This document shows positions 1,179 to 48,000 of a DNA stretch of 60,547 bases, in pieces. The stretch spans positions 1 to 60,547 of the forward strand of contig CAZAOU010000003.1 of the NCBI GenBank assembly GCA_964487135.1, read 5' to 3'. How positions within the stretch are numbered: position 1 is the first letter of the stretch; the number at the start of each line of letters is the position of its first letter. Origin of the DNA: an uncultured Candidatus Saccharibacteria bacterium. GTDB taxonomy: Bacteria; Patescibacteriota; Minisyncoccia; Phycocordibacterales; CAIRYW01. Position numbers and translations under genes: made by a program. The notes beneath the pieces were generated by a model. That model was not told the DNA's origin and made no database searches. It saw nothing but the letters and a program-made list of their open reading frames with translations.

Positions 1179-1291
1179 GGGGGCTTCAGAAAACAGGTTT
1201 TAAAGAATACGGATATCCGCTTGCTAGCGGATTCCTCGAGCTCGCCTCGGCCAGGCTCGCTAGTTTCTTTAAAACTTGTTTTCTTTCGCTA
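1179..1291 (-). repeat. Structured intergenic element, copy A
   Basis: TAGCGAA start, ~20-bp terminal stem, hairpins gcct-GGCCG-aggc and atccgct-AGCA-agcggat, GAAGCCCCC end. Confidence 0.8.
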
Positions 1292-1315
1292 ATATGTAAG
1301 ATATTATTTACTTTT

Positions 1316-1430
1316 TCAGCGGAGGAAATAACCTTTAAAAAGACTTCTGAGCATTGACCGAATGCGAAGGAAACAATTTTATAGCAATAAAATTGTGTGT
1401 CTTTTGAAAGGCTATTTCCGTAGCGCCCCC
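1316..1430 (+). repeat. Structured intergenic element, copy C
   Basis: CAGCGGA start, 21-bp stem ggaaataacctttaaaaagac/gtcttttgaaaggctatttcc, hairpins gcatt-GACCG-aatgc and aattttat-AGCA-ataaaatt, GTAGCGCCCCC end. Confidence 0.8.
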
Positions 1431-1458
1431 TTGAAATGGAGTTTAATCTTGATAGAAT
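1431..1458 (+). promoter_or_regulatory. Sigma70-type promoter for groESL
   Basis: TTGAAA-16nt-TAGAAT with TGn extension, directly abutting element C. Confidence 0.65.
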
Positions 1459-1506
1459 TCCAGTGCCTTTTAATAGGCACTTTAGTAGCTTAATTATTCT
1501 AGAAAT

Positions 1507-1839
1507 ATGTCTAAGTCAAAGAAAACATCAAAAAAGGCAAGTATAATTCCTTTAAGTGATAAAGTTTTAATAAAACCACTTTCATTAGAGGAAATAGAAA
1601 AAAAATCATTATCGGGAATTATTATTCCAGACACAATCTCTAAAGAAAAACCAGAACAAGGTATTGTTGTGGCTACTGGTGCTGGCAAATGGAATGAAGA
1701 TGGAGATAAAAGAATCCCTGTTTCTGTTAAGGTTGGAGATAGGGTTGTTTTTTCAAAATACGGATATGACGAAGTAAAACTCAATGACGAAGAATTTTAC
1801 CTTTTAAGCGAGTCGAGCATTCTTGCTGTCATTAAGTAA
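1507..1839 (+). CDS. groES: Co-chaperonin GroES
   Basis: IIPLSDKVLI..SGIIIPDT..KEKP..G.VVA.G.G..VKVGDRVVFSKYG. Confidence 0.97.
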   Translation: MSKSKKTSKKASIIPLSDKVLIKPLSLEEIEKKSLSGIIIPDTISKEKPEQGIVVATGAGKWNEDGDKRIPVSVKVGDRVVFSKYGYDEVKLNDEEFYLLSESSILAVIK

Positions 1840-1883
1840 TTTTTCTAGCAACTATTAAACTATAAACTACTAAACTTAATCAT

Positions 1884-3527
1884 ATGGCAAAACAAATTAT
1901 TTTTAATGAAGAAGCTCGAAAACTCCTTAAACAAGGAGTTGATAAAGTTGCAAATGCGGTAAAGATAACTATGGGTCCGCGAGGAAGAAATGTTGTATTG
2001 GATAGAGGTTTTGGTGCGCCAACAATAACAAACGACGGTGTTTCAATTGCAAAGGAAATTACGCTTCCAAACAAGTTTGAAAATATGGGTGCAGAGATTG
2101 TGAAAGAAGTTGCTTCTAAAACTGATGATAAGGCGGGAGATGGAACAACAACTGCAACAGTTCTTGCGCAGGCAATAATTTCTGAAGGCTTTAAGCACAG
2201 CACCATGGGTCTTAATGCTATGGGACTAAAGATAGGAATAGAAAAAGCCAAAAAAGATGTTTCTGAAGAACTTAAAAAAATGGCAAAGCCCGTGAAGAAT
2301 AAAGAAGAGTATAAACAAGTTGCAACGATTTCTGCTGAGTCTCCTGAGATAGGTAGCATTATTGCAGACACAATTGAAAAAGTTGGAAAAGATGGGGTAG
2401 TTACAGTAGAAGAATCACAATCAATGGGTGTTGAGTCAGATGTTGTTGAAGGTCTTCAGTTTGATAAAGGTTTTGCTTCTGCATATATGATGACAAATCC
2501 TGAGAGAATGGAAGCAGAATATAAAGATGTTCCTATTCTTCTTACAGACAAAAAAATTTCCTCAATAAAAGAAATATTGCCATTGTTAGAAAAAGTTGCT
2601 CAAAGTGGAAAAAAAGATCTTGTTATTATTGCTGAGGATGTTGATGGTGAGGCGCTTACTACTTTTGTTTTAAATAAACTTCGGGGAACATTTAATGTTC
2701 TCGCGGTGAAAGCGCCTGGATATGGAGACAGAAAAAAAGAAGTTTTGAGAGATATTGCTGTAACAATTGGCGCACAAGTTATATCAGAAGAAGTCGGCCT
2801 TAATTTTGAAAAGGCAGAAATTAATATGTTAGGACGCGCACAGAGAGTTGTATCAGATAAAGACAATACAGTTATTGTTGGCGGAAAGGGTAAAAAGACA
2901 GAAATTGAAAAGAGAATTAAAGAATTGAAAGCCCAGCTTGAATCTACTGACTCAAAATACGATAAAGAAAAACTTCAGGAAAGAATCGGAAAACTTTCTG
3001 GAGGAGTTGCGGTAATTAGAGTAGGAGCTTCAACTGAAACCGAGATGAAATATTTGAAGATGAAAATTGAAGATGCTGTGAAAGCAACCAAAGCTGCAAT
3101 TGAAGAAGGAATTGTTGCTGGAGGAGGTTCAGCTTTTATTAAGGTTTCTAAAAAATTATCAGAGAAAAAACATGCTTTTTCTCATAAAGAAGAAGAAATT
3201 GGATATGGTGTGGTTATAAAATCTCTTGAAGCACCAATGAGACAAATTGCAGAAAATGCTGGAAAAGATGACGCTTCTGTTGTTGTTGATTCAATCAAAA
3301 AAAATCCAAAAGAAAATGCAGGTTATGATTTTCTTAAAGATGTTTATGTTGAAGACATGATAAAAGAGGGAATTATTGATCCAGTAAAAGTCACAAGAAG
3401 TGCAATAGAGAATGCTTGTTCTGCTGGAGCAATTCTTCTTACTACAGAAGTGGCAATTACTGAGGAACCAAAAGAAGAGAAAGACCACGGACATCCAGGA
3501 ATGGGTGATATGGGAATGGGATATTAA
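1884..3527 (+). CDS. groEL: Chaperonin GroEL
   Basis: [40 protein letters not shown]; GM-rich tail. Confidence 0.99.
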
Positions 3528-3567
3528 AGAGCTTTTAGCTGATAGCTATTAGGAAAATACAAACACA

Positions 3568-46114: not shown

Positions 46115-46480
46115 ATGAATCGTTTAAAACTTCATATTCAGTATTCTTTTTTTATATACATGTTCACACCCCTGCTTTCTTTTGCAGGTGATGTTGATAT
46201 AAAAGACGCTACTGGAAGAATTACTATTGATAATCCAATTGCCGCAAAAAGTCTACCCGAATTTTTTAAGGCAATGATAATGGCTTTTACCCAGTTGGGA
46301 ACCATTGTAGCTGTTTTAGCTATAATGTATGGAGGTTTTCAGTATGCAACAGCTCAAGGCAACGAAGAAAAGTTGGCTCAGGCCCAAAAAACAGTTACTT
46401 GGGCTCTTGTTGGTACAGCTTTGCTTATTGGAGCACAAGTTATTATGACTGCTGTAACAGGAACTATTAAAAAATTATAA
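46115..46480 (+). CDS. VirB2/TrbC-like pilin 2
   Basis: IDNPI, IMYGGFQYATAQGNEEKLAQAQKTVTWALVG; ATG at 46115 follows TATAAT. Confidence 0.8.
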   Translation: MNRLKLHIQYSFFIYMFTPLLSFAGDVDIKDATGRITIDNPIAAKSLPEFFKAMIMAFTQLGTIVAVLAIMYGGFQYATAQGNEEKLAQAQKTVTWALVGTALLIGAQVIMTAVTGTIKKL

Positions 46481-46481
46481 T

Positions 46482-46961
46482 ATGAAAAAAATATTTTTTG
46501 TTTTAGCTTTAGTGGCACTCACAATTCCAAACCTTTCTTTTGGAGCTGGTGCTGCTACAACTGAATCTTGGGGAAATAACAATGATTTTGTTGAGAATTA
46601 TAATCCTTATGACCAAGCTAGTGCTACAACAGGTAATACTGTCAGTAGTAGCGATTGTAAAAAACCAAAAGATATTACTACTTTATTTGAGTACGGTATT
46701 TGTGTTTTAAGTGGTGCGGTAATTCCATTTTTGTTTGGTATTGCACTTCTAATCTTTCTTATCGGGGCTCTCAATTTTGTGGGAGCAGGAGACAATGAAG
46801 AAAAAAGAGAGGGAGGTAGACATATGATGATTTTTGGAATAATTTGTTTGTTTGTGATGGTTTCTGTTTGGGGATTTGTAAAGATATTAACAACAAGTTT
46901 TGGTTTTGAATTTGAGTTACCTTCTTTACCTAAAAAAGCTACTGGAATTTATGCGAAATAG
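46482..46961 (+). CDS. VirB2/TrbC-like pilin 3
   Basis: GAGDNEEKREGGRHMMIFGII.LFVMVSVWGFV. Confidence 0.8.
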   Translation: MKKIFFVLALVALTIPNLSFGAGAATTESWGNNNDFVENYNPYDQASATTGNTVSSSDCKKPKDITTLFEYGICVLSGAVIPFLFGIALLIFLIGALNFVGAGDNEEKREGGRHMMIFGIICLFVMVSVWGFVKILTTSFGFEFELPSLPKKATGIYAK

Positions 46962-47313
46962 TTTTAAGATAATATTTTTTATTTATCTGTTGGCTCCTTT
47001 AATTTCTTTCGCTGCCCAGCCAACAACTATAAATGAGATATTTTCAGGGTTTGTGGAGGGAAACATGTCAGGACTTATTCCCGCATGTATTTTGGTAGGA
47101 CTTATAACATTTCTTGCTGGTGTAATAAATTATGTTAGAGCGGGGGATGATGAGGAATCTAGATCAAAAGGTAGGGCTGTTATGATATACGGTGTAATAA
47201 TTATGTTTGTTATGGTTTCCGCTTGGGGATTTGTGCGAATTTTATACTATTCATTTTTCTCAGAAGAAATGACTCTGCCAAATTATTTACCAAATCTACT
47301 AGAAGCAAGATGA
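46951..47313 (+). CDS. VirB2/TrbC-like pilin 4
   Basis: RAGDDEESRSKGRAVMIYGVIIMFVMVSAWGFV; ATG at 46951. Confidence 0.8.
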   Translation: MRNSFKIIFFIYLLAPLISFAAQPTTINEIFSGFVEGNMSGLIPACILVGLITFLAGVINYVRAGDDEESRSKGRAVMIYGVIIMFVMVSAWGFVRILYYSFFSEEMTLPNYLPNLLEAR

Positions 47314-47753
47314 GGAAGAAAATATTGATCCCAATATTTGCATCTCTATTTGTGTTCCCATTATTTGTTTCCGCGGCAAGTGGATTTCCAGCACCAAAAG
47401 AATTGAAAGACATTCTTTGTTATATGGTTTTTTTGGCTCTTGATTTTGTTCCTCTAATTGTTGTATTTGCACTTGGAGCAATGATTCAGGGACTTATTAA
47501 ATATGTATCACACGGAGACGACGAAGAAAAACGCTCAGAAGGAAGAATGCTTATGATTTATGGAATTGTTGGACTGTTTTTTATTGTTTCAGTTTGGGGA
47601 ATATTAAAAATATTCGCGAATAGTTATAGTATTCCGTTTGGTATACCTCAATTTAAGCAAGATAGTTCTAGCACAAAAACTTGTGGCTCAAAACCTAATT
47701 CTGGCAGTAGTCAACAAAGTGAAAATTGCGAATTAGGGGAAACCGATTGCTAA
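47310..47753 (+). CDS. VirB2/TrbC-like pilin 5
   Basis: HGDDEEKRSEGRMLMIYGIVGLFFIVSVWGIL; ATGA overlap with pilin 4. Confidence 0.8.
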   Translation: MRKKILIPIFASLFVFPLFVSAASGFPAPKELKDILCYMVFLALDFVPLIVVFALGAMIQGLIKYVSHGDDEEKRSEGRMLMIYGIVGLFFIVSVWGILKIFANSYSIPFGIPQFKQDSSSTKTCGSKPNSGSSQQSENCELGETDC

Positions 47754-47787
47754 GGTATTTTTTAAGTTATATAGGTATTTCTTTTTC

Positions 47788-47850
47788 TAGCGAAAGGAAT
47801 CAGACTTTTTCAAGAGTTTTGAATTTGTATTTATTCTTAGCAAAATAAAG
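47788..47850 (+). repeat. Decayed partial copy (D') of the structured element
   Basis: tagcgaaaggaatcagactttttcaagag resembles the start of copy D; residual AGCA hairpin; right boundary approximate. Confidence 0.6.
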
Positions 47851-47888
47851 AAGAATTTTTCCATATTTTGAATTTCATTTTCTTTTCT

Positions 47889-48000
47889 TAGCGGAAGGAA
47901 TCAGGCTTTTTCCAGACTCTTGAGTGCGACTGGCACGAAAGTGAAGAAAATTTCAGTAGAAATTTTCTGTACTGGAAAAAGCCTGATTCCTGAAGCGCCC
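47889..48000 (+). repeat. Structured intergenic element, copy D
   Basis: Perfect 20-bp stem 47896-47915/47972-47991, gtgc-GACTG-gcac and agaaaatttc-AGTA-gaaattttct hairpins, GAAGCGCCC end. Confidence 0.85.

Follow-up and report, generated by a model that had tools for sequence, protein, structure and literature searches.

Substrates of HUH-type enzymes (TnpA of IS200/IS605, RAYT, and IS91-family TnpA) and of integron integrases are recognized as a folded single DNA strand, and intergenic palindromic repeats handled in this way are a known kind of bacterial sequence. In Patescibacteria, whose genomes are tiny and streamlined, interspersed repeats are generally thought to be scarce; to our knowledge, three-way-junction repeats specified by their shape have not been described in the phylum, and our literature search found nothing relevant on such repeats in Patescibacteria. 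Here, we analyzed a stretch of 60,547 nt from an uncultured Candidatus Saccharibacteria bacterium (assembly GCA_964487135.1, contig CAZAOU010000003.1, positions 1 to 60,547; hereafter the window). It contains a non-coding, dispersed, intergenic element of ~113 nt that folds into a three-way junction and occurs on both strands, with five intact copies (A to E) and one decayed copy (D′) in these 60.5 kb.

The closest described systems each share part of these features. REP/REPIN elements are likewise short, intergenic, multi-copy, palindromic, and non-autonomous, are thought to act as folded single-stranded DNA (ssDNA), and form inverted doublets, as copies A and C do. However, REPs are simple hairpins of 20–40 nt with a GTAG/GTGG head, they fall into clusters of near-identical sequence, and the RAYT gene is typically flanked by them, whereas the present element is a 113-nt three-way junction starting with YAGCGRA, its intact copies are only 46–66% identical to one another, and no RAYT gene was found among the open reading frames (ORFs) of the window. 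The IS200/IS605-derived PATEs are also non-autonomous and hairpin-bearing, insert without duplication, and are handled as ssDNA, but their two end hairpins resemble each other and the left end is preceded by a constant tetra- or pentanucleotide; our element has a GC-rich hairpin 1 with a GRCYG loop, a dissimilar AU-rich hairpin 2 with an AGCA loop, and variable 5′ flanks. The comparison with REP/REPIN and IS200/IS605 ends that had been drawn in the original prediction, which was made from the sequence letters before our analysis, therefore failed on three features: the GTAG head, a similar pair of end hairpins, and a constant flanking tetranucleotide. Classical miniature inverted-repeat transposable elements (MITEs; Correia/NEMIS, ERIC, RUP, and BOX) resemble the element in being intergenic, ~100–150 bp long, and complementary over long terminal stretches, and they often lie near promoters or contribute to them. 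Their terminal repeats are conserved in sequence, their copies are similar, and they generate target duplications, none of which holds for the element.

Structure-over-sequence conservation is the defining oddity of integron attC sites, which are the best-known DNA precedent for a structure-specified family. These are imperfect palindromes of ~60–140 bp in which the fold, the bulges, and a few core bases are conserved and the stem sequence is not, and one folded strand is the substrate. Unlike the element, which runs from YAGCGRA to GNAGC(N)CCCC and neighbors housekeeping genes with no integrase in the window, attC sites carry R″/R′ core sites (RYYYAAC...GTTRRRY), form a single hairpin, and stand in cassette arrays beside intI. 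IS91-family HUH elements transpose without duplication, use a CTTG/GTTC target beside an end with two subterminal palindromes, form single-stranded circle intermediates, and can carry flanking DNA by one-ended transposition (PMC13181058). The element is similar to IS91/ISCR in the lack of a target duplication, in its directionality, and in its two hairpins; its end would be flush with host CTTG in three of the five copies, provided that the final tail C belongs to the host. It differs in that IS91 ends are not one large self-complementary three-way junction and in that D and E do not abut CTTG. This comparison was made by description, and the window encodes no Y2 transposase. We know of no non-autonomous IS91 derivatives of such kind, and we regard the likeness as an analogy and a lead rather than as membership.

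The element thus belongs to a known kind, and the family matches no named one on its defining features. Database searches agreed with the earlier statement that no named family could be recognized. In Rfam (release 15), no copy gave a match at the gathering score, and none was found for the element over the whole window at E ≤ 1; a local scan of the A/C region at E ≤ 10 returned only sub-threshold microRNA and small nucleolar RNA noise (E 1.6–8.6). Searches by blastn against plasmids and phages likewise gave no match to the element. Hammerhead and other ribozyme cores, 5S rRNA, retron msr/msd, hairpins of diversity-generating retroelements, and TnpB guide RNAs were rejected by inspection, as their junction strands and context did not fit and Rfam was silent. 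In single-strand origins of the ssoA type, found on rolling-circle plasmids, a long hairpin displays the CS-6 motif, TAGCG(T/A), in its terminal loop, and an RSB site is also present. The hairpin-2 loop reads TAGCAA in three copies; an ssoA-type origin was rejected, as the TAGCGR of the element stands at its 5′ base rather than in a loop, the copies are chromosomal, and blastn found no plasmid match.

Structure and covariation of the repeat

The observation of a five-copy structured repeat is confirmed, and the five full copies and the decayed copy of the original prediction were all recovered with boundaries shifted by only 1–3 nt. Two covariance models were built, one from all five copies (R1) and one from A, B, C, and D without E (R2). 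Copy A (1179..1291, minus strand; R1 85.9 bits) lies upstream of secG, and copy C (1317..1430, plus strand; 82.2 bits) stands head-to-head with it, their 5′ ends being 25 bp apart, so that the two form an inverted doublet. Copy B (32819..32932, minus strand; 79.3 bits), between a NUDIX gene (plus strand) and ftsZ (minus strand), has the weakest fold, with several G·T and C·A positions. Copy E (38792..38903, plus strand; 84.1 bits) is the most divergent full copy, with 46–50% identity to the others, and copy D (47889..48001, plus strand; 81.9 bits), between two type IV secretion system (T4SS) pilin-like genes, is the best paired, with 20 of 20 positions matched in its long stem. Directly upstream of D lies the decayed tandem copy D′ (47788..47888, plus strand), identified by its alignment to D, in which ~25 of the first 29 bases match as read off the alignment. 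D′ has an eroded hairpin 1, lacks the 3′ arm through a deletion, and has lost the fold (z = -0.4).

Under RNA as well as DNA parameters, every intact copy adopted the same three-way junction as its minimum-free-energy fold, and folding of all five copies bore out the loops and the junction described previously. The z-scores of the five copies were -5.5, -5.2, -1.6, -3.5, and -7.5 for RNA and -6.7, -6.8, -2.2, -4.1, and -10.0 for DNA. From its 5′ end, the element reads Y-AGC, a 3-nt purine loop (GAA or GGA), and an arm of 21–22 nt that ends in AC, followed by U. Hairpin 1 consists of a 3-bp outer stem, GA, and a GC-rich inner stem of 3–5 bp that starts with G and carries a GRCYG pentaloop; its returning side runs from the C-ended inner stem through GA to the outer stem, which creates a tandem GA/GA internal loop. 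The loops themselves are GGCCG, GACCG, GACTG, and GACTG, with TTG (or CTTGG) in E. A linker of (N)GA or A leads to hairpin 2, whose AU-rich stem of 10 bp contains a bulged A in copies A and E and is capped by an AGCA-type tetraloop (AGCA in three copies, AACA and AGTA in the others). Then follow GU, the returning arm of the ~21-bp closing stem, GAA or GUA, GC, and (N)CCCC, giving a tail of the form GNAGC(N)CCCC.

Several features go beyond the earlier description. The terminal GC dinucleotides pair as a 2-bp GC/GC clamp outside the long stem, and because of this pairing the purine triplets oppose each other, also outside the long stem, as a 3 × 3 internal loop of the GAA/GAA type. The tandem GA/GA loop, the bulged A of hairpin 2, and the invariant junction (..AC-U..(N)GA..GU..) are likewise new, as is an A·C mismatch or AC bulge that four of the five copies carry in the long stem, 6–9 bp from its outer end. 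Approximately 28 alignment columns are invariant, including the 5′ YAGCGRA, the junction AC-U/(N)GA/GU, the tandem GA/GA, the hairpin loops, and the 3′ GNAGC, and AGC is thereby invariant near both ends (YAGCG ... GNAGC).

Covariance models, which the original prediction had proposed building from A to E, separated the copies from the rest of the window. R1 gave 79–86 bits on the five copies, and the next match in the window, obtained with filters off, was the reverse strand of A at 16.8 bits. R2 recovered the left-out copy E with 58.1 bits (E = 4.6e-14). A sequence pattern with two gaps built on the element ends matched A, B, and D, and gave no match in 100 shuffles. In a structural alignment made by hand, standard pairs filled 96.1% of 203 pair cells, compared with 69.7% after column shuffling and 32–51% with slid partners, and two-sided changes were present in 32 of 43 pairs; none of 500 shuffles reached any of these measures, and, although fitting the alignment to the structure somewhat inflates the absolute covariation values, the gap to the controls is still very large. 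Identity was 45–62% in paired columns over all copies (48–62% among A to D) and 76–86% in unpaired columns among A, B, C, and D, with E as an outlier at ~50%. Model scores, covariation relative to the controls, and the difference between paired and unpaired columns together indicate that the structure and the bases of the loops and junction are conserved while the stem sequence is near-saturated, in line with what the original prediction had proposed.

The conserved unpaired bases (GA/GA, GAA/GAA, (N)GA, and AGCA) are purine-rich on one strand only, and R2 scored the sense strands at 102–105 bits and the antisense strands of D and A at ~29 bits. Given that the model is so strongly strand-specific, one strand is the functional one. 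Both strands nonetheless fold near-equally, the sense strand being slightly better by z-score in all five copies. Counted from the pair table, G·U pairs occupied 8 of the 203 cells, and five of the eight mismatches were A·C or C·A, which correspond to G·U on the opposite strand. Selection on RNA tolerates G·U and not A·C. The near-symmetry of the two would fit Watson–Crick complementarity kept at the DNA level, and, in combination with the conserved unpaired bases of one strand, we infer from this DNA-like pairing that a folded single strand of DNA rather than RNA is recognized.

Genomic sites of the copies and their counterparts in related genomes

The window comes from the core genome of a Patescibacterium of the Paceibacteria type and encodes RNase P RNA, nine tRNAs, and housekeeping proteins. 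No entry of the protein collection exceeds 81% identity to its GroEL, and the best-named matches are from Paceibacterota/Taylorbacteria. The divergent secG and groES-groEL genes flank A and C, and B separates ftsZ from the divergently oriented NUDIX gene. The tail of A, GAAGCCCCC, is flush with the -35 box of a predicted secG promoter in the host sequence (1151..1178, minus strand; TTGAAA-16-TATAAT with TG, 11/12), and that of C, GTAGCGCCCCC, with the -35 box of a predicted groES-groEL promoter (1431..1458, plus strand; TTGAAA-16-TAGAAT with TG, 10/12), the TG in both being that of an extended -10 element. The tail of B, GAAGCTCCCC, abuts TTGCTG-16-TGaTATGAT, which we read by eye as a probable ftsZ promoter (32791..32818, minus strand; TTGCTG-16-TATGAT with TG, 8/12, below the scanner cut-off). 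Since these promoters lie downstream of the copies, A, C, and B would be outside the mRNAs that they precede. Copy E lies between convergent genes: a bidirectional intrinsic terminator (38748..38788) ends 3 nt upstream of it, and on the other strand the stop codon of rpsA (S1) coincides with the last three bases of the copy. D and D′ stand between T4SS-pilin-like genes, and D is not flush with a recognizable -35 box.

No convincing promoter of its own was found at any copy, the upstream sequence offering only weak and inconsistent -10-like hexamers, and no terminator directly follows any copy. The 5′ flanks (ATAT, TTTT, TTTC, TGTG, TTCT, and TTTC) are only loosely T-rich. The check for target-site duplications proposed earlier revealed no repeated flank around any copy. 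On the host side of the tail, A, C, and B are followed by CTTG when the final tail C is assigned to the host, D by CTGT, and E by CTAC. CTTG was also present at four of the five empty sites read in relatives. A motif near C, D, and E, ACTTTTTC, was dropped, because this 8-mer is common, occurring 11 times in the window, and at E belongs to the rpsA coding sequence; the variable stems gave no significant matches to other window sequence that would suggest a role as guides or antisense segments.

The groEL and ftsZ neighborhoods of ten related species were then compared (~130 kb in total; GroEL 77–81% and FtsZ 81–85% identity). Model searches, run mostly with filters off and for L005–L008 with default filters, found no canonical copy in any of the ten over this ~130 kb; nine had no copy at all, and the tenth had a marginal look-alike. 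The secG–groES gap of the window, which holds A and C, measures 414 bp, whereas the spacer is element-free in four relatives and measures 168, 266, 199, and 158 bp. The groES -35 box (TTGAAA, TTGTCA, or TTGAAT) is present in the element-free L004, L162, and L163, so that the box belongs to the host, with C positioned directly at its upstream edge. In L172, syntenic with the window at 31–45 kb, and in L176, the ftsA–ftsZ spacer is 132 and 113 bp long, respectively, and contains neither a NUDIX gene nor an element, whereas the window carries both the NUDIX gene and B; a TTGCTA box occupies the corresponding place before ftsZ in L176. The rpsA–pth gap of L172 consists solely of a 67-bp bidirectional terminator, to which the window adds a 306-aa gene and E. 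The sites of A, C, B, and E are thus empty in related species, and the insertions look lineage-specific. FtsA of the window is only 58% identical to that of L172; at such a distance, the comparison reveals gain or loss over long periods rather than recent movement.

Several genes adjoining these sites deserve description in their own right. The NUDIX hydrolase gene (32999–33406, plus strand) lies on the opposite strand between ftsA and ftsZ, and its stop codon overlaps that of ftsA; by sequence comparison with L172 (9869–10000) and L176 (9888–10000), it is a lineage-specific insertion inside the division cluster, adjoining B. The 306-aa ORF (37831–38751, plus strand), between pth and the rpsA terminator, matches nothing in Pfam or NCBIfam, is missing at the syntenic locus of L172, and adjoins E. 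L176, the closest sequenced relative, carries an IS1595-family DDE transposase gene (2532–3449, minus strand) and several small ORFs of no assigned kind between rpsA and pth. The rpsA–pth gap may be a recurrent insertion site, given the extra gene and E in the window and the IS1595-family gene in L176. Four small T4SS-pilin-like genes (PF18895) occupy 46079–48724, and D′ and D lie inside this cluster, a further ORF of which weakly matches a pilin-like conjugal transfer protein.

The look-alike was found in L164 (GroEL 78%), downstream of groEL (128 nt; 2109–2236, plus strand). It is a perfect Watson–Crick three-way-junction palindrome (z = -8.9 for RNA and -10.9 for DNA) and shares a junction core with the element, namely GAC-U, GGA-G...C-GA, and GU after a hairpin 2 that likewise contains the bulged A. 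The look-alike has neither the AGCG nor the GAAGC terminus, its loops are AGTA and TGCA, and it scored 18–19 bits with the models. A descriptor of the junction core matched four of the five copies and the look-alike; in ~1 Mb of unrelated control DNA it gave 21 core matches, one of them with a good closing stem. A distant relative of the element, not a family member, is a possible identity for this sequence. The L164 locus ends with a gene for a large serine recombinase (11406–12037).

Competing readings of the element

The reading that we favor, and hold tentatively, is a lineage-specific, non-autonomous interspersed element that would be handled as folded ssDNA by an enzyme encoded elsewhere. 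It is preferred over a conserved RNA gene because the repeat is multi-copy and patchy, has empty sites in relatives, includes a decayed tandem copy and an inverted doublet, has a precise 3′ boundary, and shows no target duplication. The original prediction had left a mobile and a regulatory role side by side; the mobile origin gained from the empty sites of A/C, B, and E and from the decayed copy, whereas no HUH, RAYT, or TnpA gene, whose co-occurrence it had proposed to check, was found within the 60-kb window.

As we envisage it, the identity of the element would be carried by the three-way junction and the ~28 invariant columns, with the stems free to vary as long as they remain Watson–Crick complementary. 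The shape on one strand would be recognized by an enzyme encoded outside the window, for which the best candidate would be an HUH-type single-strand nuclease or transposase. Insertion would be one-directional and without target duplication, setting the C-rich 3′ tail exactly against host CT(TG); in a compact genome, the tolerated landing sites would be a few bases upstream of -35 boxes or after stop codons. The AGC near both ends, the stem that holds the ends side by side, and the CTTG of the host suggest a directional cut-and-join chemistry, and AGC at both ends is as expected if one nuclease cuts both. By analogy with IS91, one-ended carry-over would explain the NUDIX and 306-aa genes on the 5′ sides of B and E. 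On this view, the present copies would still be mobile rather than domesticated.

Several observations weigh against this interspersed-element reading. No transposase, HUH, RAYT, reverse transcriptase, or integrase gene was found among the ORFs of the 60-kb window, and none adjoins any copy. A second genome with canonical copies was not found in a scan of 596 Gb of reference genomes with the strict two-gap end pattern, which returned three chance matches that the model all rejected. (A relaxed end pattern gave at least 120 chance matches in metagenomes, none of them accepted by the model among the matches listed, which is uninformative on absence from metagenomes; a viral collection gave 33 chance matches to the pattern, and a generic search for three-way junctions by folding inverted repeats was abandoned as too noisy, with coding regions dominant.) The CTTG reading requires that the last C of the tail be assigned to the host, a C before the TTG of a -35 box may simply be a promoter preference, and CTGT at D and CTAC at E fit CTTG only loosely. 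A regulatory role would also fit the orientation of four of the five copies, which is that of the downstream gene. Finally, an identity of 46–66% between copies is far below that of active MITE or REPIN populations; such divergence implies either old insertions that were each kept by selection, for a host function or for retained competence, or templated correction from arm to arm with selection on the unpaired bases. This excess of divergence for a recently active family keeps three other explanations alive.

The best surviving of these, which we consider rather unlikely, is a structured RNA family, acting as a small RNA or as part of neighboring transcripts, for instance as a protein-binding, RNase III processing, or transcript-stabilizing module. 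Covariation with conserved loops is the usual signature of a functional RNA; tandem sheared G·A and GAA/GAA loops are common RNA motifs and are strand-specific here; RNA folds are strongly stabilized (z down to -7.5); and, besides the co-orientation noted above, transcription of ftsA and of the upstream pilin gene could extend through B and D, respectively. However, A, C, and B stand upstream of the promoter-like sites of secG, groES, and ftsZ, the head-to-head pair A/C is separated by 25 bp and has no convincing promoter of its own, no copy is followed by a terminator, and E would be transcribed antisense, as the 3′ untranslated region of rpsA. G·U pairs, at 8 of 203, are about as frequent as A·C mismatches, unlike what selection at the RNA level would produce, and absence from relatives at 77–85% marker-protein identity is unusual for a core non-coding RNA. 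Nor does any Rfam family match. The regulatory-RNA option of the original prediction is accordingly weakened by the predicted downstream promoters and by pairing that is almost purely Watson–Crick on both strands.

A host DNA structure upstream of promoters, such as a branched cruciform under negative supercoiling or a site for a nucleoid- or topoisomerase-type protein that buffers or insulates divergent promoters, appears improbable. Near-equal and almost purely Watson–Crick folding of both strands is what cruciform extrusion requires, A/C have strong promoters diverging on either side, B has the divergent ftsZ and NUDIX genes on its two sides, three tails directly abut -35 boxes, the neighbors (secG, groESL, ftsZ, pilins, and rpsA) are typically highly expressed, and the high divergence between copies implies selection at each site. 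On the other side, a plain cruciform has no need of strand-asymmetric conserved bases (102–105 versus 29 bits), E lies between convergent genes rather than upstream of a promoter, D has no flush recognizable -35 box, the same promoters run element-free in relatives, and retention would be explained but not the origin of five copies.

Least probable is an attC-like recombination site at cassette boundaries, with B and E having arrived together with the adjoining lineage-specific genes and A/C and D being cargo-less: relative to L172/L176, B does adjoin the extra NUDIX gene and E the extra 306-aa gene with tails pointing outward and flush with old host sequence, structure rather than sequence is conserved as in attC, and bulged bases and mismatches stand at fixed places, but the window contains no integrase or recombinase, no RYYYAAC/GTTRRRY core sites, and no cassette array, the inserted genes are oppositely oriented relative to their element, A/C and D have no cargo, and at the distance of these relatives (FtsA 58%) the extra genes and the elements may be independent events.

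A more novel claim would be that the repeat represents a new class, namely a mobile or recombination element set by junction shape and a few unpaired bases on one DNA strand, served by an unrecognized ssDNA enzyme of the Candidate Phyla Radiation, inserting seamlessly and directionally at promoter edges, and possibly carrying the NUDIX and 306-aa genes; we consider this unlikely on present evidence. A repeat that makes up ~1% of the stretch and stands exactly at the promoter edges of secG, groESL, and ftsZ is unexpected given the presumed scarcity of repeats in Patescibacteria. If an enzyme does read the junction as ssDNA, the element would add a shape-read substrate to the repertoire of HUH enzymes and recombinases and would offer a handle on the entry of genes such as the inserted NUDIX gene. 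If, on the other hand, the element acts as RNA or as a DNA structure upstream of promoters, a new regulatory module specific to the lineage would stand beside core cell-division and chaperone genes. R1 and R2 provide concrete tools for searching further genomes of the lineage.

Other features of the window

A GC-rich block at 48700–50900 (50–64% GC, compared with ~34% elsewhere) contains two minus-strand genes, a 242-aa ORF without assigned function and an SPFH/Band 7 protein, and ends ~300 bp from tRNA-Leu (51200–51283). The block was probably acquired horizontally. A location of copy D at the edge of this island was considered and rejected, as the island spans 48.7–50.9 kb.

A perfect 14-bp tandem repeat, TTCACTATAAACTA, is present in 4.9 copies at 60479–60547 (plus strand) and runs into the end of the window, with an inverted partial copy just upstream (60415–60439). 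A similar inverted pair, AGTGAATAGT and ACTATTCACT, directly follows gyrA (43564–43647), and the motif AACTATTCACT, allowing at most one mismatch, occurs 10 times compared with 1.9 expected. This is a second repeat family, unrelated to the three-way-junction element.

Two tRNA loci and the RNase P RNA also showed unusual features. The 3′ part of tRNA-Lys, GGTTCGATCCCTAC, is repeated in inverted orientation ~50 nt downstream (52038–52128, plus strand), and the inverted pair, which forms a strong hairpin, flanks a 13-bp perfect tandem, ATTGTGTAAGCGT, in 1.9 copies; it could be a remnant attachment site or an unusual terminator. The RNase P RNA (bacterial class A; 12913–13296, plus strand) scored 102.4 bits relative to an Rfam gathering score of 100, and this low score suggests a divergent RNase P RNA in the organism. 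Finally, an ORF with an HNH_3 endonuclease domain (56553–57074, plus strand) overlaps with its 3′ end the start of a tRNA-Leu gene (57021–57106), and it may encode a free-standing homing-type endonuclease.

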